DNA of 64,000 nucleotides from a virus (IMGVR_UViG_3300044712_002679:180406-244405); one strand, 5' to 3'; shown: positions 4,370 through 56,324, counted from the first letter of the stretch. The notes: generated from the sequence alone by a model not told the origin. Program-made: numbers and translations.

Positions 4370-4380
4370 TATCTTTGTGC
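4362..4380 (+). promoter_or_regulatory. Candidate promoter -7 box TATCTTTG upstream of the 4484 gene
   Basis: aatatctttgtgcg matches TAnnTTTG. Confidence 0.3.
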
Positions 4381-5134: not shown

Positions 5135-5166
5135 TAATCAAAATAAAGTTTTTATATTTGCATCAT
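5135..5166 (+). promoter_or_regulatory. Candidate promoter, copy 1 of a repeated upstream element carrying a TAnnTTTG -7 box
   Basis: caaaataaagtttttatatttgcatc is repeated at 5371-5400. TATATTTG matches the Bacteroidetes -7 consensus. It lies about 17 nt before the ATG at 5181. Confidence 0.4.
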
Positions 5167-5370: not shown

Positions 5371-5400
5371 TATTCAAAATAAAGTTTTATATTTGCATCG
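5371..5400 (+). promoter_or_regulatory. Candidate promoter, copy 2 of the repeated element
   Basis: ttcaaaataaagttttatatttgcatcg, about 17 nt before the ATG at 5418. Confidence 0.4.
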
Positions 5401-11504: not shown

Positions 11505-11519
11505 TTTAATATATAATGT

Positions 11520-16115: not shown

Positions 16116-16210
16116 ATTATTCGGTTTTAATTTGTGAACTTAAAATTCTTATTAATAATTTTATTTTTAAATATTCGACAAATATACTAAAAATTATTTA
16201 TATTTCAAAT

Positions 16211-17043: not shown

Positions 17044-17094
17044 TTGTCATTTTTATTTTTTGCAAATATAAACAAAAAAATTAATATATAATGT

Positions 17095-18493: not shown

Positions 18494-18507
18494 ACCTTAT
18501 ATATTAA

Positions 18508-18532
18508 AATTTTTTTGTATCTTTGTCCAAAA
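18508..18532 (+). promoter_or_regulatory. Candidate promoter TTTTTGTATCTTTGT about 45 nt upstream of the 18577 gene
   Basis: The same box precedes many minus-strand genes. It contains TAnnTTTG. Confidence 0.4.
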
Positions 18533-18576
18533 TTAAAACAACTTTACATCATAGAAACATTTAAAACTTACAAATC

Positions 18577-18873
18577 ATGACAACTTCACAATTTGACGCA
18601 AAAACAGGCAGCATGTTTACAACTGAAATCACTGATTTTAGCCATTCGAATAGAATAATCGGCGAAGGTTATTTTGTTATAATTAACCCAGATTCAAAAC
18701 ATGTTTCATTCTCAAAAGCTAAACATGATATTTGTCTTGGTGATATCGTAAGCGACATTATTCCTAATTATACAAATCAACAATATGCTAACGATTATGG
18801 TGATAGGCTAACTGGCATGGGTTTGACGGTAAGGGAATTTATGCAAAAAAATTGTAGAATGAACATTTTGTAA
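18577..18873 (+). CDS. Hypothetical protein
   Basis: 98-aa ORF. Confidence 0.45.
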   Translation: MTTSQFDAKTGSMFTTEITDFSHSNRIIGEGYFVIINPDSKHVSFSKAKHDICLGDIVSDIIPNYTNQQYANDYGDRLTGMGLTVREFMQKNCRMNIL

Positions 18874-21922: not shown

Positions 21923-22171
21923 TCTTTCATATCTTTATATATTAAATATTCAACATATTTAGATTTATTTTCGAATTTTTCTTCAAGGAAATCATAGACT
22001 TTAGTATCCAATGATATTGATACTTTTCTTTTTGTTATTGGTTTTTTCATTTATTTGGTATTTTTATAGTATATATAAATAAAATAAAGTCATATTTTGC
22101 TATTTTTTAAAAAAATTTTATCTATCTTTGTGCTTTATTTAAATCATTAATAACAATTAAAATTAACAACT

Positions 22172-22843
22172 ATGAAGAAACTTATTATTTTTATGATGTT
22201 ACTGATTTGTGCAGTCAGTCTAAACGCACAACAACAAATTAGTGGATTTGGAAAATTGAAATTGGGAAATCCAATAGGATCATTCGTTGATACTATAAAT
22301 ATTAAAAAAATATTCACAAGAGATGAATATTTTGATAATTTATATCTTCATCCTACTTCTGTTCCAATTGAATTTGTTTCAGATACAATTACTGGTTATG
22401 TAGAAACTGATTGTTATCTTAATAAAAATGTTAAAACTATATATTTGCCAAAATTTCAAATACTTGAAAATTTAATTCTTAATAATGTTTATTTATCATT
22501 TTATAATGATAGCTTATTTGCTATTTCTGCTGAAAGAAATCAAGATTTGGAAGATGCGTTAAAATTAAAATATGGAACACCGAAAGAAGATGTATCTGAA
22601 AAATATGGAAATTATGGTAAAAATCAATTTTTTTTAACAACATACGAAAACGATGATTTTGTATATTGTCGTAGTTCAATTTACAAATATTTTGATAAAA
22701 ATTATGAAGCAAATTTCATTACAAATATTAAATTAAATAATAAAATAATAACAAATATTGTTGAAAATGAAGAAAATATAATTAAAAATAGAATAACAAA
22801 ACGTATCGACGATCAGAAAAAACAACAATTAAAAGATTTATAA
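22172..22843 (+). CDS. Secreted or lipoprotein-like hypothetical protein
   Basis: N-terminal signal peptide MKKLIIFMMLLICAVSLNAQ. Confidence 0.55.
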   Translation: MKKLIIFMMLLICAVSLNAQQQISGFGKLKLGNPIGSFVDTINIKKIFTRDEYFDNLYLHPTSVPIEFVSDTITGYVETDCYLNKNVKTIYLPKFQILENLILNNVYLSFYNDSLFAISAERNQDLEDALKLKYGTPKEDVSEKYGNYGKNQFFLTTYENDDFVYCRSSIYKYFDKNYEANFITNIKLNNKIITNIVENEENIIKNRITKRIDDQKKQQLKDL

Positions 22844-24222: not shown

Positions 24223-24699
24223 ATGATGGGTCCTTGGAATACACGTAATGTGCCACCATTGAAAACATTGATAATACTTGGTGATGATGATTTCCAAAAA
24301 TTGATTAATGGTGAAGTTGTTGAAAAAGCTGGTGTTAAAATTGCATTGTCAGATATTGGATTTTTACGAATGCAAGAAATTATAGATAAAAATTATAATA
24401 AATCATTAAATGAAACTTATCCTAAACAACAGAAGCAATATGCTGATGTAGATTTTATTGAATATACCGACAATGATGATAATTACGTTGAACCCGAACG
24501 GAATTGTTCTGATTGGGTTGATATGAGGTTATATTGCCTATACAAAGGATGTAAACAATATATTAAAGGCAAGGAAGGTTATAATGGACTTTTTGTGACT
24601 GAAAATGGGAAACAAGCAGATTTAAGAAATCAATGTTGGATTTGTAAAAAACACGATCACGAAAATGAAACATTTGTAGATTTTAATGGAAAAAAATAA
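24223..24699 (+). CDS. Hypothetical Cys-rich protein
   Basis: 158 aa with CSDW...CLYKGC...CWICKKHDH. Confidence 0.45.
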   Translation: MMGPWNTRNVPPLKTLIILGDDDFQKLINGEVVEKAGVKIALSDIGFLRMQEIIDKNYNKSLNETYPKQQKQYADVDFIEYTDNDDNYVEPERNCSDWVDMRLYCLYKGCKQYIKGKEGYNGLFVTENGKQADLRNQCWICKKHDHENETFVDFNGKK

Positions 24700-24734
24700 A
24701 ACTTTTTAAAAATAATTTGCTAAGTATAAAAAGT

Positions 24735-24750
24735 TTTTCTATATTTGTAC
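24735..24750 (+). promoter_or_regulatory. Candidate promoter -7 box (ctatatttgtac) ahead of a short leader ORF and the tRNA-Gln trio
   Basis: TAnnTTTG match. Confidence 0.3.
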
Positions 24751-24848
24751 AGAATTAGAAAAAAGTGGAAAAAAAAGAAATATATATAATACGAAATGAA
24801 AAATTTATCTAATAATATTATGATTCAACAACAACAACAGATTACGGT

Positions 24849-24930
24849 CTGATTGGGAAGAATCATGTCTTTTTTTTACCCAATCAGTGATGGTTGGGTT
24901 TTTTATTGCCCAAATTTATTTGGGTTTTTT
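24849..24930. terminator. Two consecutive hairpin/T-run elements
   Basis: ctgattggg...cccaatcag, then gcccaaatttatttgggtttttt. Confidence 0.4.
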
Positions 24931-24943
24931 ATTGATTTTTTAT

Positions 24944-25015
24944 TGCTTTTTAATGTAATGGTTAGCATATAACACTTTGACTGTTAGAGTCTTGGTTCGA
25001 ATCCAAGGGAGGCAA
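24944..25015 (+). tRNA. tRNA-Gln-like (TTG) with a G:U-rich acceptor
   Basis: Acceptor TGCTTTT/GGAGGCA, D-arm ATGTAATGGTTAGCAT, anticodon stem TAACA/TGTTA with loop CTTTGAC, T-arm CTTGGTTCGAATCCAAG. Confidence 0.5.
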
Positions 25016-25027
25016 CAAAACAAAAAT

Positions 25028-25098
25028 AGCCTTGTAGCATAATGAAGTGCTCCATCCTTTGAAGATGTAAGGTATCGGTTCAAGTCCGATCAAGGCTT
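25028..25098 (+). tRNA. tRNA-Gln (TTG)
   Basis: Perfect acceptor AGCCTTG/CAAGGCT, D-arm GCATAATGAAGTGC, anticodon stem CATC/GATG with loop CTTTGAA, T-arm ATCGGTTCAAGTCCGAT. Confidence 0.75.
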
Positions 25099-25099
25099 C

Positions 25100-25171
25100 A
25101 ATCTTTTGGTGTAATGGTCAGCATATAATTTTCTGAAATTTAAGATATTGGTTCGATTCCAATAAAGATTA
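25100..25171 (+). tRNA. tRNA-Gln (CTG), probable
   Basis: Perfect acceptor AATCTTT/AAAGATT, D-arm GTGTAATGGTCAGCATAT, anticodon loop TTCTGAA, T-arm ATTGGTTCGATTCCAAT. Confidence 0.55.
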
Positions 25172-25231
25172 CAAATGTCCATAGTGGTATTTTTTCGATA
25201 TTTTTTATTTATATATAAATAAAAAAACACT

Positions 25232-26077
25232 ATGGACAAAATTTTAAAACAATTTGGAAAAGATAAACTTATAGAAGCAGTAAACGAATCTAATTCTTTT
25301 GTTGAAGCAACATCTTTTTTAGGATTAGATGCAAAAAATACTAACATTAAAAAGAATGTGGAAAGATCAATTAAAAGATTAGGATTATCCACAGAACACT
25401 TTGAAAGTGTCAAACGAGTAAAAGATGCTAAAACTAGATACACAAAAGAAAAATTAGAATCGCTTGTTATAAAATGTAAAAATTATAAAGAAATTTTAAT
25501 TGAATTGGATGTTTTACCTATTGATAATAATTATAAAAAATTAAAATCTGAATTATATCGTTATAAAATTGATTTTTCACATTTAAAAAATCAAAAAATA
25601 TCAACAATTAAAGTAAATTGGGCAAAAGAAGTTTTGGAACCAATATTTAAAAAATCATTATCCCAAAAAGAAGTTTTAGAAAAATTAGGATTAAGATCTG
25701 CTGGTGGTAATTTTAATACTTTACGAAAATATATAAAATTATATAATTTAGATAGTTCTCATTTTATTAAAAATTATGATTCTATGTGCAATGTTAGTAA
25801 AAATAAAAAAATTCCTTTAGATCAAATTTTAGTTGAAAATTCGACATATGATAGAACACATCTTAAAGATAGATTATATAAAGAAGGATTAAAAGAAAGA
25901 AAATGTGAAATGTGTGAACAAGATGAAAATTGGCATGGTAAACGTATGAGTTTGATTATTGATCACATAAATGGTATTCATAATGACAATAGATTAGAAA
26001 ATTTAAGAATTATTTGTCCTAATTGTAATGCAACATTAGACACACATTGTGGAAAAAATAATAAAAAAGCCAGATAA
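25232..26077 (+). CDS. HNH homing endonuclease, paralog of 7789-8494
   Basis: CEMCEQDENWHGKRMSLIIDHINGIHNDNRLENLRIICPNCNATLDTHCGKN. Shares ILVENSTY..LK.RLYKEGLKERKCE with the paralog. Immediately downstream of the tRNA-Gln genes. Confidence 0.7.
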   Translation: MDKILKQFGKDKLIEAVNESNSFVEATSFLGLDAKNTNIKKNVERSIKRLGLSTEHFESVKRVKDAKTRYTKEKLESLVIKCKNYKEILIELDVLPIDNNYKKLKSELYRYKIDFSHLKNQKISTIKVNWAKEVLEPIFKKSLSQKEVLEKLGLRSAGGNFNTLRKYIKLYNLDSSHFIKNYDSMCNVSKNKKIPLDQILVENSTYDRTHLKDRLYKEGLKERKCEMCEQDENWHGKRMSLIIDHINGIHNDNRLENLRIICPNCNATLDTHCGKNNKKAR

Positions 26078-26453: not shown

Positions 26454-26672
26454 TTATATTAAAACCATTGTGTGACCATTTGTATTCCATTCTTCATTTG
26501 GGTTTATTTGAATACAATTAATATTACTCTTAAAAAAATCATACCCAAAATATGAATATACTTCACATTCACCATCATTTTTCACATTTTGTATTGTACA
26601 TATGTTACCAACCCAATCTCTATCACCTGAAGTAATTTTTACTTTAATTCCTTCAAAATCTTTTATTTCCAT
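26454..26672 (-). CDS. Hypothetical protein
   Basis: 72 aa. A 41-aa upstream ORF (26655-26777) lies between it and the promoter. Confidence 0.4.
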   Translation of the reverse strand: MEIKDFEGIKVKITSGDRDWVGNICTIQNVKNDGECEVYSYFGYDFFKSNINCIQINPNEEWNTNGHTMVLI

Positions 26673-26784
26673 AAATCTAAATTTGGTTGAAGACTAGTTG
26701 AAAGATTGATACCAAGATTGATACCTGTTAGGGACATTTCATTTAACATTTCATCAGTTAATTCTACAGTATTCATTTTTTATA

Positions 26785-26822
26785 GTTTTAATGATTAACG
26801 ATACAAAGATACAAAAATTTTT
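26785..26822 (-). promoter_or_regulatory. Conserved promoter box (minus strand reads TTTTTGTATCTTTGTATCGTTAATCAT)
   Basis: Member of a promoter family of at least 8 copies containing TATCTTTG (TAnnTTTG). Confidence 0.45.
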
Positions 26823-26834
26823 TGAATTAAAAAA

Positions 26835-27410
26835 CTAAATCGTTTTCATTTTCATATATTGCCTAACATATTCAACACTTTTATTTAAAAATGGTGTCAA
26901 ATCAACAATATGATGTTCTGTATTACTATACATTTCCGATTCTGAAAATTCTGCAACTATATTGTTAGCAGAATAAAATATAATACTAGGTTCAATATCT
27001 TTTAAATTTGGTCTTAATTGTGTGAGTATTTTTGCTTTTGTTACCAGTTCAGAAAATACAGAAGATAATACATCACTATTAATTTGGTCAGAATTAGAAA
27101 AACTGGTAGTTACATTTTCATTTTTAGTTGATCTATTTTTTACATTTTCATGTATATATTCTATAACATACCAAAGTGATTTACCATAACTTGGTGAATT
27201 CATTCTGAACATCTTAGTTGTATTTTTTTCATTGATATCATTGATTGGTAAATCAATCCACAATCTAAAAGATTCTTCGTGTGTATCGTTTTCGATGATA
27301 ACTATATGACCCCTGAATAATACTTCCGAAAATGTTTCACTATCGTTGATAAACCGACTAGCAACATAATCTCTTAGTTCAATCCAATCATTCGAATTAA
27401 TTTCTTTCAT
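26835..27410 (-). CDS. Hypothetical protein
   Basis: 191-aa ORF. Confidence 0.5.
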   Translation of the reverse strand: MKEINSNDWIELRDYVASRFINDSETFSEVLFRGHIVIIENDTHEESFRLWIDLPINDINEKNTTKMFRMNSPSYGKSLWYVIEYIHENVKNRSTKNENVTTSFSNSDQINSDVLSSVFSELVTKAKILTQLRPNLKDIEPSIIFYSANNIVAEFSESEMYSNTEHHIVDLTPFLNKSVEYVRQYMKMKTI

Positions 27411-27411
27411 A

Positions 27412-27452
27412 ATATTTTGTAATGATTAACGACAAAGATACAAAATTTTTTG
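27412..27452 (-). promoter_or_regulatory. Conserved promoter box (minus strand AAATTTTGTATCTTTGTCGTTAATCATTAC) directly upstream of the 27410 start
   Basis: Same family. Confidence 0.45.
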
Positions 27453-27478
27453 GATAAAAAAAATAATATATAAACAAT

Positions 27479-28084
27479 ATGAAAACAAAATTTGCAGAAT
27501 TTATAATTGAATCAAAAACGTATAATTTATATAAAGGGGTCACTAGATTGGACGAAATATTAAAAAGTGGTAAACTTAAATATGATAATAATTGGGAAAC
27601 AACTATAAGACAAAATATGGGTATAATGGGTATTGGAATATCAGCTACTCGTGTTTTTTCAACAGCATTAAAATATGGTGAAGCAATTATAGAATTTGAT
27701 ATCGAAAAATTGAGTGCCAAATATAGAATTATACCATTTTCGGAAAATCCAGATTATTTTATTTGGTATAAAAAACATTTTTCACCACCAGACAGTTATA
27801 ATTATGTAAAAACTGGAATTAGTGATAATCAATATAATGATATTTTTTGGGATTATAAAACAAATAAATATGATCCGGATTTTAATATTGCAGAAGAAAT
27901 TATTTTAACAAAAGAAATACCTATAAAATATTTCAAAAAGGTGTATCTCAACACAGATAATATACTATTACTTAAATTATTAAAATCTAAAAATATTCCA
28001 TATGAAATTGTTGATAATGAACATTTATCTGAAATAAGACATAAAAATAAGAAGAAAAATAAAAAAAATTTATTAGATTTTTGA
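27479..28084 (+). CDS. Hypothetical protein
   Basis: 201-aa ORF. Confidence 0.5.
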   Translation: MKTKFAEFIIESKTYNLYKGVTRLDEILKSGKLKYDNNWETTIRQNMGIMGIGISATRVFSTALKYGEAIIEFDIEKLSAKYRIIPFSENPDYFIWYKKHFSPPDSYNYVKTGISDNQYNDIFWDYKTNKYDPDFNIAEEIILTKEIPIKYFKKVYLNTDNILLLKLLKSKNIPYEIVDNEHLSEIRHKNKKKNKKNLLDF

Positions 28085-28270
28085 TATTTTTTGAATTTTG
28101 TTATCATCAAATCTAATTTCTAAATTTTTTGAAAAAATAGAATCAACTTTATTATCATACATTACAACATAATCATTATCTGATGGTAACCAACCATTCA
28201 ATTCCTTATTTAGTCTACAAACCTTTTTTAGTTTTAGTTGTAATATATCATTTAATTCGCTAAATTTCAT
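28073..28270 (-). CDS. Small hypothetical protein
   Basis: 65-aa ORF. Confidence 0.3.
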   Translation of the reverse strand: MKFSELNDILQLKLKKVCRLNKELNGWLPSDNDYVVMYDNKVDSIFSKNLEIRFDDNKIQKISKI

Positions 28271-28283
28271 TATTTTAAATATT

Positions 28284-28308
28284 AAAAAAGGGGATTAAAT
28301 CCCCTTTG
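28284..28308. terminator. Rho-independent terminator-like hairpin overlapping the stop codon of 28295-28843
   Basis: aaaaaaggggattaaatcccctttg. Confidence 0.5.
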
Positions 28309-28843
28309 CCATTTTATTTTTGATTTCATTTATTTTCAATTGGGCATCTTCTTTATTTTCAAAATAATTTCCTGTTGCTTTACGATAATGATAAGCAAAT
28401 TCATTTATGTGTGTTTCGGTTGTTACCATATGTTGAATGATGCCCTTTGAACTGATAAAGAAGTATATTTTACCATCATAAATATCTTTATCGGTTACTG
28501 TATAACTTACTTTATTGATTTCAATTGTATATTTTGCTCTTGTTTCGGTAACTGATTGTGCAGTTAAAACTGTTGCAGGAACTTTTACTGACAATCCACG
28601 ATGTTTTACTGACAATCCACGATGAGATTTTGCAAATTTTTCAGTAATATAAACCACATCCCCTGGTTTGAAATATGTTTCATATTCAACTTTGAAGAAA
28701 TCTGGTTCTTTTTCAGGATTATAAATACAAACTTGACCACCATCAAATACCCATTGTCCATTAATGAATTTAACACCGGTTCCAATTTTAATTCCACCAG
28801 GAAGAATTTTTGTAGTTACATAATAAGTTGCTTTCATATTCAT
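28295..28843 (-). CDS. Hypothetical protein with an in-frame 21-nt tandem duplication (HRGLSVK x2)
   Basis: 182 aa. DNA repeat at 28591-28632. Confidence 0.5.
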   Translation of the reverse strand: MNMKATYYVTTKILPGGIKIGTGVKFINGQWVFDGGQVCIYNPEKEPDFFKVEYETYFKPGDVVYITEKFAKSHRGLSVKHRGLSVKVPATVLTAQSVTETRAKYTIEINKVSYTVTDKDIYDGKIYFFISSKGIIQHMVTTETHINEFAYHYRKATGNYFENKEDAQLKINEIKNKMAKGI

Positions 28844-28882
28844 TTGTTGTTTTAAATTCGATACAAAGATACGAATTATTTT
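28844..28882 (-). promoter_or_regulatory. Conserved promoter box (minus strand AATTCGTATCTTTGTATCGAATTTAAAACAACAA) upstream of the 28843 start
   Basis: Same family. Confidence 0.45.
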
Positions 28883-28967
28883 TTAAATGAACAAACTTTA
28901 TTTGTGATATTCTTCTTTATATTTCATATTGGTTTCCAATCGGGTCTAAAACATGAAATTAGTTTTT

Positions 28968-29004
28968 AAAAAAAGTGGGTCTAATAATTAGACCCACTTT
29001 TTTT
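28968..29004. terminator. Rho-independent terminator-like hairpin
   Basis: aaaaaaagtgggtctaataattagacccacttttttt. Confidence 0.6.
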
Positions 29005-29211
29005 CACTTTATAATATTGTTTTTTCATATTAATTAATGCATTTAATATTTTTCCAACAACTTCAACCACTTCGTTATCATCAGTGACTTCAACCACTTC
29101 GTTATCATCAGTGACTTTCAAATCACCCAATTCTAACTCTAACGCATTAATCATATCTTCTAAAGATATATATGGTTTATTATTACTACCAGTTATTGTT
29201 TCAATTAACAT
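28981..29211 (-). CDS. Small protein with a TDDNEVVEV tandem repeat
   Basis: 76 aa. The start overlaps the terminator hairpin. Confidence 0.3.
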   Translation of the reverse strand: MLIETITGSNNKPYISLEDMINALELELGDLKVTDDNEVVEVTDDNEVVEVVGKILNALINMKKQYYKVKKSGSNY

Positions 29212-29329
29212 ACTTTTAATTTTTATTGTTTATATTTAAGCAATATACTAATTATTTTTTATTTAAGCAATATACTAATTATTTTTTTATGATTAAATAA
29301 TTAATTTCAAATATGATATAAAATTACAT

Positions 29330-29779
29330 TTAATCATTTTTATTCCTTATTTCTTTTAGTTCATACAATTTTAACATTCGTATTAATTGAAGGGAATTTT
29401 TATATTTTGCGTTACTTTTTGGTATATTTTGATTTATATACAAAGTAGAATCTGAAAAATATTGAATAGAATCACAAACAATTTTTATTTTTTTTCCACA
29501 CAGTTTTGGTTGTTCACCAAATTTGCCAAAAAAATTATCAATTGGTGTAGAAAATTTACAATTCTTGTATAACATAATATTGTTTGATTTGTGTTTCATT
29601 TGCCAAACAATATCTAATCTATATTTATTTTTTTCACAATCTTCGATTTTTTCAAGAATCTGATTAAGAATAATATCATCTGTAATAACTAACTCAAAGC
29701 TTTTATCGGCTCGATTAATCATTTTTACGTTATTTTTATCTTTCTTATAAAATATTAAGAATTTTTTCATATTTTGCAC
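29330..29779 (-). CDS. Hypothetical protein
   Basis: 149-aa ORF. Confidence 0.45.
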   Translation of the reverse strand: MQNMKKFLIFYKKDKNNVKMINRADKSFELVITDDIILNQILEKIEDCEKNKYRLDIVWQMKHKSNNIMLYKNCKFSTPIDNFFGKFGEQPKLCGKKIKIVCDSIQYFSDSTLYINQNIPKSNAKYKNSLQLIRMLKLYELKEIRNKND

Positions 29780-29822
29780 AATAAAATAAAACTATTTTGC
29801 ACAATAAAACTATTTTGCACAT
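29762..29822. promoter_or_regulatory. Three direct repeats (TTTTGCACAATAAAA core, about 19-bp period) in the divergent intergenic region. Operator-like
   Basis: gcacaataaaataaaactattttgcacaataaaactattttgcaca. Confidence 0.45.
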
Positions 29823-29883
29823 TCAACAAAAGTAAAAAATAAATTTCAAACAAAAAAATAATTGTAAAAAATATATATAGATT

Positions 29884-30630
29884 ATGATTACTAATTTTAA
29901 AAATTTTAAGAATAAAAAAGAATATATTTTATTAGTCGGACCACCTGGTAGTGGAAAATCGACATATATATCTAAATTACAAAGGTTTGGAAAAAAATAT
30001 GACATTATAAATCGTGATGATATTGTTATTGATATTGCTGAAAAAAATGGACTTACATATAAAGAAATGTTTAGTAGACCAAATAATATTTTTTTAAAAA
30101 ATGGTAAACATTTTATTCCAAATTCTTCTGATTTTTATGTTGAAAATGGTAAGAAATATTTAAAAAACTTTGAATATTTGGGTGATATAATTGAAGTTAC
30201 TGATGGTGAATATAAAAGTAGAATATCACCTGAAATATTTACAAAATTATCAGAATTAAATAATGTAGTTGAAGATACGCTTAATAAAAATATAGAACAT
30301 GCAATAAGGAAAAAACACAATATTATTATTGATATGACTAATAATAATAGGTATTATAGACAATTTTTCATTAATAAATTAAAAACACATAAACAATATT
30401 ATAAAATTATTGCTGTGATATTTAATGATGGTGGTAAAGGAATGGAAGATGTCTTAATAAATGTTAACAAAAGAAGAGATTTAGAATTAGCAAAAAGTGG
30501 AAGAAATAAAGCAATACCTGAAGATATTATTAGAAAATTTATTAGCAGTTATGAACCACCAACAAAATCAGAAGGAATTGACAAAATTATACATATTGAT
30601 ACTAAGAAAAAATTGGAAAAAATAATCTAA
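29884..30630 (+). CDS. Polynucleotide 5'-kinase (T4 Pnk kinase-domain-like, P-loop)
   Basis: Walker A LVGPPGSGKST, DMTNNNRYYRQ and RNKAIPEDIIRKF parallel T4 Pnk (GCPGSGKST, SDTNLNPERR, GTKAVPIDVLRSM). No HAD phosphatase domain. Confidence 0.6.
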   Translation: MITNFKNFKNKKEYILLVGPPGSGKSTYISKLQRFGKKYDIINRDDIVIDIAEKNGLTYKEMFSRPNNIFLKNGKHFIPNSSDFYVENGKKYLKNFEYLGDIIEVTDGEYKSRISPEIFTKLSELNNVVEDTLNKNIEHAIRKKHNIIIDMTNNNRYYRQFFINKLKTHKQYYKIIAVIFNDGGKGMEDVLINVNKRRDLELAKSGRNKAIPEDIIRKFISSYEPPTKSEGIDKIIHIDTKKKLEKII

Positions 30631-30674
30631 ACAATATTCGATTCTTAATCTATAATAAGAAAAAAATATGATAA

Positions 30675-31862
30675 ATGGTTTCAAAAACTGCTGAAGATTT
30701 TATTTTACAATTTGTAAGTAGAGATTTTCAATATTTAACACAACAATCAAAAATTTCATATAAACGAATCAACTTAAAATGTTCTTATTTGATCAACATT
30801 ATACACGAATTACTGATCAAATATTATTTTAGTAACAATATTGATACTAAATTTAATTTATCTTCAATTATCCTTAAAAAGAAATATGGTGAATTTTATA
30901 ATTATTATATAGAATATCTATGTGATAATGGTTTTATGAGCTTGGTATCGAATTATTATGTTGGTAAAAAAACAAAATCATATAAATTAGACACAAAATA
31001 TGTCTATGATACAATACGATATAAAAATACAGATAAATTCATTTTAAAAAAATCAAAAAATAGATATGAAACTACGATTTCTGAAATGAATCAAAGTTCA
31101 ATTTTGCCTGGTGTTCGAACAAAATTAATTCAATCATTGGATAGCATTAAAATTGATTATGATGGTGCTAATAAATTTCTTAATGAATTGATGGATAATA
31201 ATATTATAGATGATTCAAAATATAAACGAAACCAAATATCAATAGAAAATATAAGGGATGGTAACATATATTTTAACTTTGATGATTATGGTAGATTTCA
31301 TACAAATTTTACAATTTTAAGAAAAGAAATCCGTAATCAATTTTTATCAATAAACAATGAAATGTTAGCAGAAGTTGACATTAAGAATTCTCAACCATTG
31401 TTTTTTGGTGTTTTGCTAAAAAATGCATTACCACATATAAATGGGGACACTGAACGATATTTTGATTTAATAGTATCTGGTTTATTATATGAAGATATTG
31501 TGGAAAAATCAACAATTTCAAGTAGGAAGGATGCAAAAATGCTAATGTATAAAATATTATTTGGTGATAACATTAATGATAATAAGAAATTAAATAAAGT
31601 TTTCAAAAAGTTATATCCTTCTGTACACGAATATATTTTAGAATTTAAGGAAGAAAAAAAGAATTATAAAGAATTAGCATACAAATTACAGAAAATGGAA
31701 AGTAATTTCTTGTTTAATACTGTAATAAAAGAAATTTATCAAACTTATCCTGAAATTGTATTGTTTACTGTTCATGATTCGATAATGTTTCCAAAATCAT
31801 ATCAAGAAAGAGTTGAAGCGATATTTTATAAGCATTTTAAAAAACTAATCAGTGTGTTTTAG
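30675..31862 (+). CDS. Hypothetical protein
   Basis: 395-aa ORF. No ligase KxDG motif found. Confidence 0.5.
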   Translation: MVSKTAEDFILQFVSRDFQYLTQQSKISYKRINLKCSYLINIIHELLIKYYFSNNIDTKFNLSSIILKKKYGEFYNYYIEYLCDNGFMSLVSNYYVGKKTKSYKLDTKYVYDTIRYKNTDKFILKKSKNRYETTISEMNQSSILPGVRTKLIQSLDSIKIDYDGANKFLNELMDNNIIDDSKYKRNQISIENIRDGNIYFNFDDYGRFHTNFTILRKEIRNQFLSINNEMLAEVDIKNSQPLFFGVLLKNALPHINGDTERYFDLIVSGLLYEDIVEKSTISSRKDAKMLMYKILFGDNINDNKKLNKVFKKLYPSVHEYILEFKEEKKNYKELAYKLQKMESNFLFNTVIKEIYQTYPEIVLFTVHDSIMFPKSYQERVEAIFYKHFKKLISVF

Positions 31863-31890
31863 ATTACCATTTATCATTAATTTTCGGAAA

Positions 31891-32241
31891 TTATTTATAT
31901 ATTTTCCAAATCATTATGTAAGGCATATCTTTTTCGGATTCACTTTTTGTTTTTAATGATTCTAAAGCAAGTACAGGACTTTCAGTTCCAGAAGCAAACT
32001 TTCCTTTCCCTTGAAATAGTGGCATCATAGCAGCTTCATAATACTTCAAACAAGAAGGATGTATTTGTGCAATTTTTGATGCTTTCGTATAGGTTAATTT
32101 TTCAATTTCCCCTTTGTAATAAGGTTCACCTTCAATTTGATAGTAAGCCTGTTCTAATTCTCCTTCTGATTCAAAGAAAGCAATTGCATAATGCCAAATT
32201 GTTTTAAACTTTACCACAATTTTAATATTTTGAAAGTTCAT
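31891..32241 (-). CDS. Hypothetical protein (start uncertain)
   Basis: ORF 31891-32331 trimmed to an internal Met to limit overlap with 32222-32464. Confidence 0.35.
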   Translation of the reverse strand: MNFQNIKIVVKFKTIWHYAIAFFESEGELEQAYYQIEGEPYYKGEIEKLTYTKASKIAQIHPSCLKYYEAAMMPLFQGKGKFASGTESPVLALESLKTKSESEKDMPYIMIWKIYK

Positions 32242-32464
32242 CAAAATCAAATATTCTACCATTCCAACTGTGCAAATCATCAATTCGATTGTCAGTTTTA
32301 TCAGCAACAAAATAGATTGTAGGGGTTTCACCTATATCATTTTTTAATTCTTCAATCGTATTGTATTGCCGTGAATGTGAACCCAATATTCTGTCTAACA
32401 GTATAACCATTGGGGTTTCACCAATTCCAAGATAATATGTTACCGAAAATTTAATTGTTTCCAT
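32222..32464 (-). CDS. Hypothetical protein
   Basis: 80-aa ORF. Confidence 0.35.
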   Translation of the reverse strand: METIKFSVTYYLGIGETPMVILLDRILGSHSRQYNTIEELKNDIGETPTIYFVADKTDNRIDDLHSWNGRIFDFDELSKY

Positions 32465-32776
32465 TTATTTATATTTAATGGTGTTAAGTGAAGATTCAGA
32501 CCATGCGATAAAATAATTACTTTTTTCGATGTTTTTGACAACATTCATAAAGTTATCATCATCCGGAATAGTCACAAAATCTTCTTTAATTGAATTATTA
32601 TCAGGTGAATATTTTTTTAATTCTTCTGAATATGTAATTTTTTGAAGATTGTATGTGTCAAGGATATCATCAATTGACATATTTGGATTTTCACTTTGTA
32701 TTTTTTCGTATGATGGTTCAATTGGTTTTGAATTACATCTTGTGAAATAGAGTACTATATCAAAATTTCCGTTCAT
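32465..32776 (-). CDS. Hypothetical protein
   Basis: 103-aa ORF. Confidence 0.45.
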   Translation of the reverse strand: MNGNFDIVLYFTRCNSKPIEPSYEKIQSENPNMSIDDILDTYNLQKITYSEELKKYSPDNNSIKEDFVTIPDDDNFMNVVKNIEKSNYFIAWSESSLNTIKYK

Positions 32777-32777
32777 A

Positions 32778-32818
32778 ATTGTTGTTTAAATGATAGGTCA
32801 AAGATACAAAAAAATAAT
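32778..32818 (-). promoter_or_regulatory. Conserved promoter box (minus strand TTTTTGTATCTTTGACCTATCATTTAAACAACAAT) upstream of the 32776 start
   Basis: Same family. Confidence 0.45.
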
Positions 32819-32994
32819 GATTAATCCAAATTAAATGATAGCTAATTCAACATCAGATTCAGTTAATTTAGTTGAATATTCATCGTGATTTAAATTGATA
32901 TTCATCCCATTTTCGATTTTATCAATCATTCGTTCACCTTTAGAAGTCACATCTAATCTTTTTACAACTTCGTTGGTTTTATCTTTTATGATTT

Positions 32995-33378
32995 CTAAAT
33001 ATTTGTACATATTTTTTCGTTTTTCTTTAATGTCTTATTAATTTTGATATTTGCAATTTGCATTTCTTCAACAATTTTTCTCAACTTATGATATAATTCT
33101 TTAGCATCATAATTTTGATCAAATTCAATTGCCTTTAAAATTAAATTTAAATCGCTGAATGATAAATCCCAATTGTATGCATAGTCAGGTGAATCACTTG
33201 TTTTTTCCCAATCCCGTCTATTTTTCATTCCATACAAAAATGCACCATATCCTGGAATTGTTGTAGATTTAACTTTTGAATCATAGTGGTGTGCAGCATC
33301 ATTGTAGATGATATTGAATTCTTCTTCTGTAAATTCAACATTTAATTTTAATTCGGCACAAAAACAATATTTATTCAT
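32995..33378 (-). CDS. Hypothetical protein
   Basis: 127-aa ORF. Confidence 0.45.
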   Translation of the reverse strand: MNKYCFCAELKLNVEFTEEEFNIIYNDAAHHYDSKVKSTTIPGYGAFLYGMKNRRDWEKTSDSPDYAYNWDLSFSDLNLILKAIEFDQNYDAKELYHKLRKIVEEMQIANIKINKTLKKNEKICTNI

Positions 33379-33406
33379 AGTTTTAATTTTTAATTAAATT
33401 TTTTAA

Positions 33407-33664
33407 TTAATTCATAAACATAGGTTTATACCAAGCCATAGGGATATTTTCTTCAATCCACTTTAACGCTATTGGCTTAATATGCATAAAAAGTAAGGAA
33501 TAAATTACATTAGGATATTCTGATGCTGGTCTATCAAAAGTAAAATTGTAGTCATCTAATATGTTATTTAATTCAGGAATAGCAATATCTATTACTATTT
33601 TTGCTTGTGATTCAAACATTCCGTTATTAACAAGCATAGTTTCTAATTTTTCCCTAGAAGTCAT
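33407..33664 (-). CDS. Hypothetical protein
   Basis: 85-aa ORF. Confidence 0.4.
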   Translation of the reverse strand: MTSREKLETMLVNNGMFESQAKIVIDIAIPELNNILDDYNFTFDRPASEYPNVIYSLLFMHIKPIALKWIEENIPMAWYKPMFMN

Positions 33665-33665
33665 A

Positions 33666-33718
33666 ATTGTGTTGTTTTAATGTTGTTTTAAATTATAGAA
33701 CAAAGATATGAATAATTA
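33666..33718 (-). promoter_or_regulatory. Conserved promoter box (minus strand ATTATTCATATCTTTGTTCTATAATTTAAAACAACA) upstream of the 33664 start
   Basis: Same family. Confidence 0.45.
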
Positions 33719-34111
33719 ACGATTAAACCAAATAATTTGATCAAAATCTTTGCGAACTTTACCACATTTTATGTCACTCGGAAATATATCAATGTCACTC
33801 ATTTTGCCATCTTTAATATAATTTCCGGAACCATCATAATCAATAAATCCACCACATTTGCAATTAGATACAAATTCTTTAAGTGTCATAATATCACCAA
33901 AATCTGGTAATTCTTGATATGTTGGGGTTTTTACCAAGCGATACAATCTTGATATGGTGCAAGATTTTTCTGATGCTTTTCGCATATATTCTTGAAATTC
34001 TTGATATGATAAATTAAGTGGTATATTTTTATACCATTCATCATATTCTTTATCGGCTAATTCAAGTGCGATTTTTAATTCTGCTTCAGTTTTTTTCGTA
34101 ATTTTAGCCAT
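33716..34111 (-). CDS. Hypothetical protein
   Basis: 131-aa ORF. Confidence 0.45.
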   Translation of the reverse strand: MAKITKKTEAELKIALELADKEYDEWYKNIPLNLSYQEFQEYMRKASEKSCTISRLYRLVKTPTYQELPDFGDIMTLKEFVSNCKCGGFIDYDGSGNYIKDGKMSDIDIFPSDIKCGKVRKDFDQIIWFNR

Positions 34112-34150
34112 ATTGTTGTTTTAAATGATGGTACAAAGATACGAATAATT
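34112..34150 (-). promoter_or_regulatory. Conserved promoter box (minus strand AATTATTCGTATCTTTGTACCATCATTTAAAACAACAAT then ATG)
   Basis: Same family. Directly abuts the ATG at 34111. Confidence 0.45.
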
Positions 34151-34171: not shown

Positions 34172-34489
34172 TTATAAAATATTATATTTTTTTGCATTTA
34201 TTTTTATATCAAACGGTTTCCAAAAATCAGATGAAACTATTATTTTTGTAGTTACACAATTACCATATGTTGATTTAATATCAATATCATAATCTTTAAA
34301 AGTTTCTAATATTTTTTTTAAATTTTCTTTATATATAACACGATATTTAAGATTAATACTAAATGAATCCACATATTCATCAACAATAGTAATTATCATA
34401 GCATCATCAAATATTTCATATAAATATGGTAAATATTTATCAGTATCTTTATCTCTTCTTTTAACTTCAAATGTTTTTACGTATTTCAT
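34172..34489 (-). CDS. Cassette-array member 6 (MKYVKTFEV ... INAKKYNIL)
   Basis: 105 aa with the conserved termini. Confidence 0.55.
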   Translation of the reverse strand: MKYVKTFEVKRRDKDTDKYLPYLYEIFDDAMIITIVDEYVDSFSINLKYRVIYKENLKKILETFKDYDIDIKSTYGNCVTTKIIVSSDFWKPFDIKINAKKYNIL

Positions 34490-35694
34490 AATATATTATA
34501 TTTTTTTGCTTTGGTTTTTATTTCATATTGTTTTCTATCTTCAGATGTTATTATTAAATTTCCCATATTAGTCCATTCTGGATTATTTATAATTGAATCG
34601 TGTGCAAATCTCCAATTCCACCCCACCAATGAATTAAATCCAAAATTTGTTATTAATATTTCATCATTTAAATTCATATGATTGTCGATCCCAGATTGTT
34701 TCATTGTCATTCGTCGTTGATTTGGTATATTTAATTTATCCATTGCAACATCAAAATCAGAGTATAATATTTTCCAATATTTTTTTGTGTTAATGTTGGT
34801 TTCGTTACTTTCAAATTTTTTGGTTTCATATTTTTCTTTCAATTTTATAAATAAGTCATACATTCTCTTATCGTAATGTTTTTTAAATCTTGTTGTTTTT
34901 CCATAAAAATCGAAATTTCTTAATGATAACATTGTAAAAAATTCTTTAAATGTATTAAACGAATTTATTTGATTCCATTTAATATCACCATTTTTTAATT
35001 TTATTATTAATTTATCAACTGCTGCCAAAAAAAATGCATTATATTCTGTTGTTAAATTTGCATAAACTTTATCATATTCATCTATAAAATTTGGATCCAA
35101 TTTGGCATTATATTCAGGATCATTAGCCAATCCAGCATCACAAATATCATATAGTTTTGATTTACTACAAGCTTTTATTAATTCTTTAAATAAATCGAAT
35201 TTCATATCATCTGTGGCATGAATTAATTCGTGAAATATTATCTGTTTTTCTTTATTTTCTAATTTATATCTTGCAATATCTTTTTTAATTTTTTGCAATT
35301 CTTGATTGTTGTTACTTGTAAATATTTTTCTGATTAATTCATAAAATTTATCTAAAGGTATAGTTAATATATATTTATTGCCATTTTTTTCATATGATCC
35401 AGCGATTTTATCCGCTTTACCTTTAACATTACTATCATATTTTTTTATTTTGATAATAAATTTGAAATTTTTAAGGGGAATTTCAAGTGTTTTTGGATAA
35501 AATTCAAAATTTTCATATGTTGTTGAAAAAATATAATCAATATAATGATTTTTGTTGGTTAATATATTATCAGCAATTGTTACAAAATGATTTCGAATAA
35601 GAATCATAATATCGTTCATCATATCACGAATTTCTTCTCTTTTTTCTAAATCTTTACGTTCTATTATAAATTTATATTTCTTTAAATATTTCAT
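34486..35694 (-). CDS. Cassette-array member 5: HExxH zincin-like metallopeptidase candidate (MKYLKKYKFIIER ... KAKKYNIL)
   Basis: 402 aa with IFHELIHATDD. ATGA overlap with both neighbours. Confidence 0.55.
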   Translation of the reverse strand: MKYLKKYKFIIERKDLEKREEIRDMMNDIMILIRNHFVTIADNILTNKNHYIDYIFSTTYENFEFYPKTLEIPLKNFKFIIKIKKYDSNVKGKADKIAGSYEKNGNKYILTIPLDKFYELIRKIFTSNNNQELQKIKKDIARYKLENKEKQIIFHELIHATDDMKFDLFKELIKACSKSKLYDICDAGLANDPEYNAKLDPNFIDEYDKVYANLTTEYNAFFLAAVDKLIIKLKNGDIKWNQINSFNTFKEFFTMLSLRNFDFYGKTTRFKKHYDKRMYDLFIKLKEKYETKKFESNETNINTKKYWKILYSDFDVAMDKLNIPNQRRMTMKQSGIDNHMNLNDEILITNFGFNSLVGWNWRFAHDSIINNPEWTNMGNLIITSEDRKQYEIKTKAKKYNIL

Positions 35695-35996
35695 AGAATA
35701 TTATATTTTTTTCCTTTTTTGATTATTGCTTTATTTTTTATATAATCAAAATATTCATCAGGTGACATCCATTTTGGTGCATAATTTTTTTCACTACAAT
35801 CATCGCATACCCATTCAGGTGGTTGCATACCACCTCTTGCTGTTGGTGTTAATTTATAACTATCACAGTTAGAACAAATATAAAATCTATCACCAAACCC
35901 ATTATCATATAAATAATCATTAAAATTATTTTTAGGTTGATCTTGTTTGGTTAAATAATTACCTTTATGTTTTTCAAAATTTTTTAAATATTTCAT
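35691..35996 (-). CDS. Cassette-array member 4: Zn-ribbon protein (MKYLKNFEKH ... KKGKKYNIL)
   Basis: 101 aa with CSNCDS...CDDCSEK. Confidence 0.5.
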   Translation of the reverse strand: MKYLKNFEKHKGNYLTKQDQPKNNFNDYLYDNGFGDRFYICSNCDSYKLTPTARGGMQPPEWVCDDCSEKNYAPKWMSPDEYFDYIKNKAIIKKGKKYNIL

Positions 35997-36576
35997 AGAA
36001 TATTATATTTTTTTCCTTTTTTCCAAATGTTATATTTTTCAATATCTTTTGGTGTGATTTCAATTTCACCCATATATGTATATTTTTGTGATGATAAAAA
36101 ATCTTCATCAGTAGTATATCCCCAAGGATTATATTATCGAAATCCGTATTTTCTTTTCTAATCTTTCTAATATTTGAAAATTCGTGTGACCAATTACCAG
36201 ATAATAATTCATAAGATTTACATCCTCTAGTATAAATCATCTTTGTTATTTCATCTAATGTTGCTTTAATTCTATCATTTCTTTGCCATTTAGTATTTCC
36301 GAAATCATCATCTAATATTTGTATATATGTTTCAATATAATAATCATTATTATATGAAAAAACAATAAATATTCTATTCTTACCAACCGAAATTATTAAT
36401 GTGTTTTTATTTTTCTTTATTGTTAAAATAAAGTCTTTTTTATATTTTATTTGTTGCCATTGTGCATTACCTGAAATTGAATAATCTCGTTGGACTTGTT
36501 TCATAACAACGAATGGTACACTTAAATTGATAAGTGATGTTTTTTCAAATAATTTATATGTTTTCAAAAATTTCAT
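35974..36576 (-). CDS. Cassette-array member 3 (MKFLKTYKLFEK...). The C-terminus is frame-shifted relative to family members at a poly-A tract
   Basis: 200 aa. Ends ...FGKKEKNIIFYEIFKKF instead of ...KKYNIL, and reads 23 nt into the next gene. Confidence 0.5.
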   Translation of the reverse strand: MKFLKTYKLFEKTSLINLSVPFVVMKQVQRDYSISGNAQWQQIKYKKDFILTIKKNKNTLIISVGKNRIFIVFSYNNDYYIETYIQILDDDFGNTKWQRNDRIKATLDEITKMIYTRGCKSYELLSGNWSHEFSNIRKIRKENTDFDNIILGDILLMKIFYHHKNIHIWVKLKSHQKILKNITFGKKEKNIIFYEIFKKF

Positions 36577-36974
36577 AATATGTTATATTTAGTTGCTTTT
36601 TTGTTGATTAAAAATTTTTCATATTCATCTTCTGATAAATGTTTTTTTAGATAATTATCTAATTCTATTTCATTTGGTTTTTCTAACTTTCTTTTTGGAA
36701 GTATTGCTTCATATTTTTCGACACCCCTTAATATATGATTTGGAAATAGTCTTGGTACATTTTCAAAAAATTGAACCGTAAATTTATAATCATCATAATT
36801 TTTATTATTTATATCAATTATTTTTCCAAATACACCCTTTTTGCAAAATTCAATAGTTGGTGGATCCAAAAGTTCATTATAATTAATTTTAATATAATCA
36901 CCAATGTTAAAATCGTCTTCATCTTTATCGTTATCGTATTTTTCAAATAATTTATATGTTTTCAAAAATTTCAT
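36573..36974 (-). CDS. Cassette-array member 2 (MKFLKTYKLFEKYDND ... KKATKYNIL)
   Basis: 133 aa. Confidence 0.5.
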   Translation of the reverse strand: MKFLKTYKLFEKYDNDKDEDDFNIGDYIKINYNELLDPPTIEFCKKGVFGKIIDINNKNYDDYKFTVQFFENVPRLFPNHILRGVEKYEAILPKRKLEKPNEIELDNYLKKHLSEDEYEKFLINKKATKYNIL

Positions 36975-37318
36975 AATATATTATATTTAGCTGCTTTTTT
37001 GTTGATTAAAAATTTTTTATATTCTTCTTTAGATAAATGTTTTTTTAAATAATAATCTAATTCTATTTCATTTGGGGGTTCTAATTCATCTAAATTTACA
37101 CTAAAAATATATGAACCATTACCTAATGGGACTTTTTTAAAAAATTTAATATCATATGGATATTCTGTTCCAACTTTTATATCTTCTATTTTACCTATTT
37201 CAGATTTAAAAAAAATAAGATGGGATTGATCAAAATAATCTCCAACAATTTTAACATAGTCACCCACATTAAATTCTTGATTATTTTCAAATAATTTATA
37301 TGTTTTCAAAAATTTCAT
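36971..37318 (-). CDS. Cassette-array member 1 (MKFLKTYKLFENNQEF ... KKAAKYNIL)
   Basis: 115 aa. Its C-terminal 40 aa are nearly identical to member 2. Confidence 0.5.
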   Translation of the reverse strand: MKFLKTYKLFENNQEFNVGDYVKIVGDYFDQSHLIFFKSEIGKIEDIKVGTEYPYDIKFFKKVPLGNGSYIFSVNLDELEPPNEIELDYYLKKHLSKEEYKKFLINKKAAKYNIL

Positions 37319-37442
37319 ATTTTATAATTTATATATATAAAAAAAGAAATTTTTTTTTAAGAAAAAACAGTTTTAAATATTAATATATAAAAAAGTAAAA
37401 TTTTATTTTAATATATAAACATAAAAAATAAATAAATTAATC

Positions 37443-53164: not shown

Positions 53165-53758
53165 TTAAATTGTGTTATATTCAAAATCTAAATCTGTACA
53201 TTTTACTAATAATTTTTCATTATTTGAAGTTTTTATTTCCACCGAATGAAAATAATTTGGTGAATGAATTCCTTCTGATTCAAAATTGGTTTTAATTATA
53301 TCAACATATTCACCATTATATAATGCTTTTTTGTGCAAAATTTGTGTGTTATATTCAATCTTGTAAGTATTTGGAATATCTTCATCCAAACAAGATATAA
53401 TATCGACATGGATCGCATATTCTTCAGGGTCTAATAAAGACACTAAATAATTTTTTACTTTTTCAGCAATTTCAGTTGAAACAAATTCAAATTCTTCTGG
53501 CCATTTTCTACCATTTTGATTAGAAACTGCAACAAATTCACCATCTAAAAAATACGCTTTAATACCAACAAAACTATCAGTACAATGATGAACTTTAATA
53601 AAATAAGATTTTAATCTAGTATCATCAGACCAATCTAAATTAATATTAAATTCAGATGATAAATTTGTCCAATCAGGACAATCTTCCAATTTTTTATTCG
53701 TAAAATCTATTTCTGAAATTAATTTTCTTAATGTTGTCATAATTATAATTTTTGACAA
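53165..53758 (-). CDS. Hypothetical protein
   Basis: 197-aa ORF. Confidence 0.45.
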   Translation of the reverse strand: MSKIIIMTTLRKLISEIDFTNKKLEDCPDWTNLSSEFNINLDWSDDTRLKSYFIKVHHCTDSFVGIKAYFLDGEFVAVSNQNGRKWPEEFEFVSTEIAEKVKNYLVSLLDPEEYAIHVDIISCLDEDIPNTYKIEYNTQILHKKALYNGEYVDIIKTNFESEGIHSPNYFHSVEIKTSNNEKLLVKCTDLDFEYNTI

Positions 53759-53772
53759 AGATAATAAAAAAA
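53740..53772 (-). promoter_or_regulatory. Promoter box of the same family (minus strand TTATTATCTTTGTCAAAAATTATAATT then ATG)
   Basis: TATCTTTG. Confidence 0.4.
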
Positions 53773-56237: not shown

Positions 56238-56324
56238 ATATTATTTATAACAAATGTATTTTTTTTATTGGATAATACAAAAAAATTACTTTAAAATTTT
56301 AATATATACAGAAAAAATAAAATT

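Follow-up and report, generated by a model that had tools for sequence, protein, structure and literature searches.

Repeated boxes on a 64-kb stretch of an uncultured huge phage resemble Bacteroidota sigma-A promoters and point to a Bacteroidota host

The DNA stretch IMGVR_UViG_3300044712_002679:180406-244405 (64,000 nucleotides, nt; hereafter the window) represents 64 kb of a phage genome of about 501 kb, and all window counts given here are confined to these 64 kb. A short box recurs in front of start codons on this stretch, several of its copies falling between positions 26785 and 34150. With high probability these boxes are promoters of the Bacteroidota type served by the host sigma-A, and they most likely constitute the early promoter class of the phage. 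The primary RNA polymerase holoenzyme of the host, of the sigma-A(Bfr) type, would read the boxes, the promoter being composed of a -7 element TA(T/C)(C/A)TTTG, a T-tract from -19 to -14, an A-tract from -24 to -20 and a T-rich or TTTG-containing element near -33. Transcription is predicted to begin some 5 nt downstream of the G in the -7 element, resulting in A-rich leaders of 10-50 nt that lack a Shine-Dalgarno (SD) sequence and often contain TTTAAAACAACA. The boxes would thereby drive short units of small genes without known family, and one of them would drive a leader in front of a tRNA-Gln cluster. In analogy to the early promoters of T4, the box-driven small genes are most likely early genes of host takeover; we infer host sigma-A use, early timing and the exact start sites.

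In a preliminary description of the window, at least eight genes had been reported to carry a shared upstream box with the core GTATCTTTGT(A/C), and a second repeated element had been placed at 5135 and 5371. All eight copies and the pair are present, the positions originally given being the ATG-proximal ends of the boxes (Table 1). The core holds in its strict form for five copies, with exact GTATCTTTGT at 18517(+), 26803(-), 27432(-), 28863(-) and 34133(-), and loosely for the other three (32798, 33701, 53755), which are one base off the 10-mer; TATCTTTG is kept in all eight, with 15-51 nt separating its G from the ATG. The second element is real as well, its two copies being one T apart, and belongs to a direct repeat of about 70 nt that includes AAAA(C/A)GTG(T/C)AAAAAA. 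This A-rich stretch is located at 5113-5127 and 5349-5363 (+), roughly 25 nt ahead of either TATATTTG box, and CGTGT-containing stretches upstream of boxes are also seen in two relatives from IMG/VR, L007 and L011; it may represent a regulator site or an UP-like element. A search of both strands with the motif known from the literature showed that the box extends beyond the initial list, as ten more sites of the same type were found, including the 5135/5371 pair, giving 18 in total. The box at 26804-26811 serves the 37-codon open reading frame (ORF) listed for it and not the larger gene further down.

Promoters of Bacteroidetes consist of a -33 TTTG and a -7 TAnnTTTG element, the latter refined to TAHHTTTG from 241 promoters of Flavobacterium johnsoniae; further AT-rich motifs are located around -18 and -28, and in F. 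johnsoniae the -33 element is weak (PMC6847099). The 18 sites of the window were brought into register at the box, and their positions follow the numbering of Baez et al. (T-12 ... G-5). The proposed identity of TAnnTTTG with the -7 consensus is borne out at every defining position, as T-12, A-11, T-8, T-7, T-6 and G-5 are found in 18/18 sites. G is absent from -10 and -9 throughout; at -10, 16 of the 18 sites have T and two have C, and at -9 there are 11 sites with C, six with A and one with T. Upstream, the aligned sites show the T-tract at -19 to -14, the A-tract at -24 to -20 and T-rich sequence from -35 to -30. An A is present at the predicted start (+1) in 11/18 sites, and in the leader an A is found at +8 in 17/18 and at +9 in 15/18, within the motif TTTAAAACAACA.

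Ten products encoded downstream of boxes were tested and none matched a Pfam family above threshold; early phage genes are typically without Pfam family. Among 88 genes, two carry an SD core (GGAG, GAGG or AGGA at -20 to -4), compared to 2.3 expected by chance, and in the region from -18 to -3 upstream of the starts A reaches 0.50-0.67, with G depleted at 0.02-0.09. The absence of SD sequences together with upstream A enrichment is characteristic of Bacteroidetes (PMC6847099). The window sites share with Bacteroidota sigma-A(Bfr) promoters the -7 consensus positions, the absence of G at nn, AT-rich tracts one and two helical turns upstream, a TTTG near -33 in a minority of sites, and predicted leadered mRNAs without SD that have A-rich initiation regions. 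In contrast to these, the sites of the window are phage-borne, their nn is strongly biased to TC or TA, a bias at -13/-4 (G...T) yields the longer GTATCTTTGT core, and many copies are followed by the phage-specific TTTAAAACAACA. Calling promoters on Bacteroides phages by the -7/-33 consensus is already practised: in phage Bf12P1 these TTTG elements were used to call intergenic promoters ahead of co-expressed blocks (PMC13139388). Those calls were supported by transcript data on a cultured small phage, whereas the phage studied here is uncultured, has about 500 kb and is known from sequence only. The boxes belong to a well-known kind; they help to assign a host but would hardly be unexpected to a specialist.

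Since TAnnTTTG alone is frequent in AT-rich DNA, TAHHTTTG was tested just at promoter positions. This motif, fixed a priori, was searched in sense orientation within the last 70 nt before the ATG of genes having at least 40 nt of non-coding DNA upstream. It precedes 14 of 50 such genes, compared to a mean of 3.0 (standard deviation 1.7, maximum 12) in 2000 dinucleotide shuffles, and the distances from its G to the ATG (13, 19, 20, 22, 22, 22, 22, 24, 25, 34, 36, 41, 51 and 56 nt) cluster at 19-25 nt. The core GTATCTTTGT has five exact matches against 0.15 expected, a number reached in 0/100 shuffles. A repeat finder returned the box as its two largest families (D1 and D2), which occur only in intergenic DNA, and de novo enrichment of 8-mers in the 80 nt upstream of genes yielded TATCTTTG, with 9 of 16 copies upstream of genes, as well as the leader word AAAACAAC and a further motif, TAATATAT. 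Sites of the E. coli sigma-70 type (-35/-10) are not enriched in the window (185 vs 181 expected).

The box is found in related phages, too. Within 40 kb of the Prevotella phage Lak-A1, GTATCTTTGT occurs four times against 0.09 expected, each copy being preceded by sequence similar to TTTTTTTATTTCA and followed at 30-40 nt by an ATG, and in LR756501 and eight non-redundant IMG/VR relatives the arrangement TTTTTTATT(C/T)AA-N~12-TAT(C/A)TTTG is located 19-25 nt before ATGs. An orthologue of 53165-53740 in L007 (89% amino acid identity) retains its box as TATATTTG, an A replacing the C at an n position; for the genes next to the boxes at 56251 and 53756, L007 alone provided orthologues, so that each footprint has n=1. 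For the promoter at 24716-24747 an alignment was obtained with seven relatives, four of them complete and three partial, in which the flanking protein is 58-68% identical; its -33 TTTG and TA.ATTTG are invariant, and the n position and the bases -14/-13 vary. No relatives were found in IMG/VR for the early-region proteins 33716-34111 and 28295-28843 or for the 158-residue product of 24223-24699, and the footprints by orthologues come from boxes outside 26-34 kb. In bacteria, the exact 14-mer TTTTGTATCTTTGT was searched in 185,579 species genomes, giving at least 120 matches, the first 80 of which were classified. Among these first 80 listed, 38 belong to Bacteroidota and one to Ignavibacteriales, and among the matches listed a sense ORF starts within 100 nt downstream in 30/38 cases from Bacteroidota compared to 11/42 from other phyla (Fisher p = 2e-6).

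The window itself has a guanine-cytosine (GC) content of 24%, and the standard bacterial code (code 11) gives about 86% coding DNA. It encodes 25 bacterial-type tRNA genes in two clusters, a single-strand DNA-binding protein of the T4 gp32 type (58535-59467(-)), homing endonucleases of the HNH and GIY-YIG types and, among its sugar genes, a multi-domain glycosyltransferase of 1752 residues and nucleotide-sugar enzymes; the product of 24223-24699 has an identical counterpart on a 501,337-bp contig of the Joint Genome Institute (JGI). Because of the gp32-type protein, the homing endonucleases, the bacterial-type tRNAs and this 501-kb contig, the window is, by its gene content, part of a T4-related megaphage of about 0.5 Mb and not of a eukaryotic giant virus. 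In IMG/VR, 30 contigs of up to 330 kb encode gp32 at 73-88% identity. By tblastn with gp32 and a 641-residue endonuclease, the nearest genomes are the huge phages LR756504 (636 kb), LR756501/3 (735 kb), LR745206 (634 kb) and LR756502 (642 kb) at 42-48% identity, with Lak-A1 as a more distant relative; among 50,697 phage records, megablast found no match to 20 kb of window sequence. Those huge-phage genomes were grouped with Lak phages as the 'Mahaphage' clade by Al-Shayeb et al. 2020, and genomes above 634 kb were all predicted to replicate in Bacteroidetes (PMC7162821). The phage thus appears to be allied to the Mahaphage/Lak group, gp32 and the homing endonuclease being the only pointers to the clade, and to infect a member of the Bacteroidota. 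The window encodes neither the terminase nor the major capsid protein. It resembles these megaphages in its best gp32 and endonuclease matches, followed by those of Lak-A1, in the 501-kb contig and in the promoter core common to Lak-A1; in contrast to them it apparently uses the standard genetic code and has a GC content of 24%.

Promoter type, SD-less translation, relatives and the distribution of the box among genomes are four independent lines that point to Bacteroidota as the host phylum. The initial claim of a Bacteroidetes-type host rather than a eukaryotic one is therefore supported, with the host placed at the level of the phylum. For an uncultured phage of about 500 kb the boxes would provide a sequence-intrinsic, culture-free host assignment at this level. 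They suggest that the Mahaphage/Lak group opens infection with the phylum-specific promoter type of its host, delimit a probable early set of small genes without known family, apart from a second, phage-specific promoter class, and would represent a first step to a transcription map of megaphages.

Several points weigh against the assignment of the boxes to host sigma-A. A literal -33 TTTG at a spacer of 19-20 nt is present in 7/18 sites, the remainder being just T-rich at -35 to -30, and the gene calls are crude, as the longest ATG-initiated ORFs were picked greedily without a gene finder. The bacterial counts cover the first 80 matches listed, to be compared with a share of Bacteroidota of roughly a tenth among species representatives. 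The promoter role of the boxes is deduced from their sequence, and TAnnTTTG alone is common in DNA of 24% GC, with 152 copies in the window and 114 of these in coding DNA; the individual weak sites at 4370, 29827 and 16179 could be chance matches. Such numbers, together with the 30-50 nt shared by several copies, which could be duplications, would favour an explanation by chance, i.e., AT-rich intergenic DNA and recent duplications without function. This explanation is close to refuted and retains hardly any probability: the upstream count was reached in 0/2000 shuffles, orientation and ATG spacing are non-random, and the box is conserved at orthologous and non-orthologous positions in relatives. 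Furthermore, the likeness stops at the ATG and the proteins downstream are mutually unrelated; a duplicated gene cassette as origin of the shared 30-35 nt was rejected, too, since the similarity ends at the ATG.

Huge phages can encode sigma factors of their own, and as only 64 of about 501 kb were examined most of the genome lies outside the window. The boxes could instead be recognised by a sigma factor or RNA polymerase that the phage itself encodes, in which case their likeness to the host consensus would be less telling. Large transcription and translation repertoires were reported for huge phages (PMC7162821), and a second, clearly non-host motif described below, [AT]ATATATA, shows that the phage redirects transcription. 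We nevertheless consider a phage-encoded reader improbable, as the host consensus is matched at every near-invariant position, an identical 14-mer is found in promoter position on many Bacteroidota chromosomes and the core is shared with Lak-A1, a phage of a different Bacteroidota order; moreover, a phage sigma factor copying the specificity of sigma-A(Bfr) would still point to the same host phylum. It is more improbable still that the conserved unit acts at the level of RNA, as processing site, translational enhancer or regulator-binding site, with the TAnnTTTG match being incidental. The conserved block does run past the box into the leader, where TTTAAAACAACA and the As at +8 and +9 are found, and AAAACAAC is itself enriched upstream of genes. 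However, the information content is highest at the DNA-level -7 positions, the consensus positions are fixed in orthologous promoters while neighbouring bases drift, and an A-rich translation initiation region of the Bacteroidetes type that accompanies the promoter (PMC6847099) accounts better for the leader motif. Promoters of the host sigma-A type therefore remain the preferred reading of the boxes.

Table 1. Promoter-like boxes, leader elements and associated features in the window (ORF, open reading frame; positions counted from the first nucleotide of the window; earlier position, as given in the preliminary description)
Feature	Position	Strand	Earlier position	Context
-7 box TATCTTTG	4370..4377	+		106 nt before ORF 4484-4987; weakest by distance; added site
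-7 box TATATTTG, second element copy 1	5153..5160	+	5135	20 nt before 55-codon ORF 5181-5348; added site
-7 box TATATTTG, second element copy 2	5388..5395	+	5371	22 nt before ORF 5418-5615; added site
-7 box TATCTTTG, leader CATCATTTAAAACAACAA	14558..14565	-		24 nt before ORF 13790-14533; added site
-7 box TATATTTG, -33 TTTG at 19-nt spacer	16179..16186	-		63 nt before ORF 15825-16115; added site
-7 box TATATTTG	17063..17070	-		19 nt before ORF 16681-17043; back to back with TAATATATA of divergent 17095-17475; added site
-7 box TATCTTTG	18518..18525	+	18508 (plus-strand copy)	51 nt before ORF 18577-18873
-7 box TATCTTTG	22123..22130	+		41 nt before ORF 22172-22843; added site
Promoter TTTG-N20-TATATTTG (box at 24740)	24716..24747	+		upstream of Gln leader; added site
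-7 box TATCTTTG	26804..26811	-	26785	27 nt before 37-codon ORF 26663-26776
-7 box TATCTTTG	27433..27440	-	27412	22 nt before ORF 26835-27410; back to back with AATAATATATA of 27479-28084
-7 box TATCTTTG, -33 TTTG at 20-nt spacer	28864..28871	-	28844	20 nt before ORF 28295-28843
-7 box TACTTTTG	29827..29834	-		56 nt before ORF 29330-29770; then three GTGCAAAATA repeats; added site
-7 box TATCTTTG, -33 TTTG at 20-nt spacer	32799..32806	-	32778	22 nt before ORF 32465-32776
-7 box TATCTTTG, -33 TTTG at 20-nt spacer	33701..33708	-	33666	36 nt before ORF 33407-33664
-7 box TATCTTTG, -33 TTTG at 19-nt spacer	34134..34141	-	34112	22 nt before ORF 33716-34111
-7 box TATCTTTG	53756..53763	-	53740	15 nt before ORF 53165-53740
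-7 box TACATTTG, -33 TTTG at 19-nt spacer	56251..56258	-		13 nt before ORF 56040-56237; added site
Leader ORF MKNLSNNIMIQQQQQITV, 18 codons	24796..24852	+		five Gln codons at 24826-24840
Five consecutively complementary segments	24849..24925	+		each pairs with the next
Segment 1 CTGATTGGG	24849-24857	+		overlaps leader UGA stop at 24850
Segment 2 CCCAATCAG	24879-24887	+		
Segment 3 TGGTTGGGT and T run	24891-24899	+		
Segment 4 GCCCAAA	24908-24914	+		
Segment 5 TTTGGGT and T run	24919-24925	+		
Three tRNA-Gln genes (UUG, UUG, CUG)	24944..25172	+		downstream of leader and terminators
[AT]ATATATA, examples	17082-17090, 27464-27472, 37409-37417, 51930-51938, 56300-56308	+		
[AT]ATATATA, example	18498-18506	-		

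Besides the host-type boxes, the window contains a second promoter-like class, [AT]ATATATA, often in the form TTTAATATATA at 4-25 nt before the ATG. It lies within 40 nt of the ATG in 23 genes, compared to 2.3 expected from its overall density, and an excess of about tenfold is also found in 14 related loci including LR7565xx and Lak-A1; the motif is seen in L002-L032, too. The genes behind this motif encode HNH endonucleases, a P-loop kinase, glycosyltransferases and a six-gene paralogue array. In four divergent regions (14534-14613, 17044-17094, 18494-18576 and 27411-27478) the motif stands back to back with a host-type box, and in these short intergenic regions the apparent 'upstream half' of the box consists of the TAATATATA motif and the start codon of the opposite gene; some box copies look 30-35 nt long because [AT]ATATATA adjoins them in this way. 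In six genes the motif ends just 4 nt from the ATG, a spacing that would imply leaderless or nearly leaderless mRNAs. In T4, late promoters consist of a TATA box of 8 bp that precedes the start by roughly one turn, is found on either strand and has no -35 element (PMC2988020). The window resembles the division into early and late promoters of T4 in that the phage is T4-related, encodes gp32 and has one class that looks like the promoters of its host, and [AT]ATATATA resembles the late promoter as a bare TATA-like 8-mer on both strands without -35 element. In contrast to T4, the host-type class follows the Bacteroidota and not the sigma-70 consensus, and the motif of the window, (A/T)ATATATA, comes as near as 4 nt to the ATG; gp55 and gp33 are lacking from the window, no search aimed at their homologues having been made. 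The paralogue array is formed by six genes in tandem (34172-37318(-)) that overlap consecutively by ATGA stop/start and are preceded, near 37330, by just one motif of the TATATATA type; the products start with MK(F/Y)(L/V)K(T/K/N)(Y/F), 5/6 end with K(K)YNIL, and no Pfam family was found for the member of 402 residues.

The promoter at 24716-24747 stands before a Gln-rich leader and tRNA-Gln genes, an arrangement that is the more unusual result compared to the promoter boxes. The run of five Gln codons in the leader ORF is the only run of four or more Gln residues in the six frames of the window, in which Gln accounts for 2.3% of the codons and CAA for 92% of the Gln codons. Of the five segments that follow, the pairings 2:3 and 4:5 constitute two terminators and the pairings 1:2 and 3:4 a read-through fold. 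We lean, if only slightly, toward a model in which this promoter drives a ribosome-mediated attenuator that senses the decoding of Gln (CAA) and gates the tRNA-Gln genes of the phage. Ribosomes stalled on the CAA run would favour pairing of segment 1 with 2 and of segment 3 with 4, so that no terminator forms and the polymerase reads into the tRNA-Gln(UUG/CUG) genes, and with fast decoding the ribosome would reach the UGA stop inside segment 1 and both terminators would form. If true, a phage of 24% GC would top up tRNA-Gln only when the supply of the host is limiting.

The predicted folds are consistent with this model. The free RNA folds into a protector hairpin (24819-24868) and both terminators (-34 kcal/mol, z = -2.55), and in the minimum free energy (MFE) fold with the bases under a ribosome at the stop masked both terminators form. 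With the ribosome masked at Gln codons 2-3, the MFE fold consists of 1:2 and 3:4 without terminator in L156, L163 and L164, and in the window this stalled-ribosome fold holds when the 3' tail, as not yet transcribed, is excluded. Four variants of the element are available, i.e., the window (= L159), L156/L157, L162/L163 and L164 (loci L156 4667-5149, L163 1372-1758, L164 2020-2445(-) and L162); all keep the promoter, the leader with five Gln residues in the window and four in the three relatives, the segments and, further downstream, 2-3 tRNA-Gln genes. Across the four sequences, 94-96% of cells are paired in either fold, the stems being nearly invariant, and no double-sided compensatory changes are found among them; the support for the folds is conservation and energetics, not covariation. 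The tRNA-Gln sequences behind the conserved leader differ much between relatives (L156 4893-5149 vs window 24944-25172), and L164 has a second terminator that passes into the remnant of a truncated tRNA. Both observations suggest that tRNA cargo turns over behind a fixed regulatory module.

Like the ribosome-mediated leader-peptide attenuators of the trp, his, leu and pheA type, the element at 24740-24943 combines a short ORF, in which one codon family forms a run, with a protector hairpin, T runs, and antiterminator and terminator folds that exclude each other. In contrast to them, it is located on a phage, targets tRNA-Gln genes rather than biosynthetic enzymes, these genes taking the place of the classical biosynthetic operon in every relative, and has two tandem terminators linked by a five-segment chain. 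With the same logic and another target class it would be a variant rather than a classical attenuator. No Rfam family matches the leader element, and the matches at gathering score within the window are tRNAs only. A full-text literature search found no attenuator controlling tRNA genes, and a distant blastn search with the attenuator region returned only unrelated tRNA-Gln genes of coliphages and Acinetobacter phages. The exact tRNA-Gln piece and the leader pattern gave no matches in IMG/VR, no analogous codon-run leader precedes other tRNA groups in the window, and no tRNAs are present at the gp32-neighbourhood loci of relatives. To our knowledge, no leader-peptide attenuator acting on tRNA genes, and none on a phage, has been described. 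The Gln leader would, if the model is true, represent a new use of attenuation and a handle on why large phages carry tRNAs.

Genes resembling those of homing endonucleases (GIY-YIG-like, HNH and DUF7487/HNH) are dense in the 64 kb, being located at 20891-21922(-), 25232-26077(+), 56549-58474(-) and 205-1230(+); one of them lies directly 3' of the tRNA-Gln cluster and another adjoins gp32. The 29827 box is separated from the ATG of 29330-29770 by DNA that includes GTGCAAAATA(GTTTTAT) in three copies (29770-29820(-)), which may be operator sites. Two tandem copies of AATAATTAGTATATTGCTTAAATA (29233-29283(-)) are located upstream of gene 28981-29211, which itself contains an exact 27-nt tandem duplication at 29060-29113 (VTDDNEVVE twice). 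In the tRNA region 6205-12555 (+), ARAGORN assigned unusual lengths to a number of tRNAs of types in which a long variable arm is normally absent (Met 91 nt, Glu 87, Asp 85, Cys 85, Met 85 and Arg 97) and made two further tRNA calls to which it assigned no anticodon. An extra tRNA at 11120-11190, missed by ARAGORN, is seen by Rfam.

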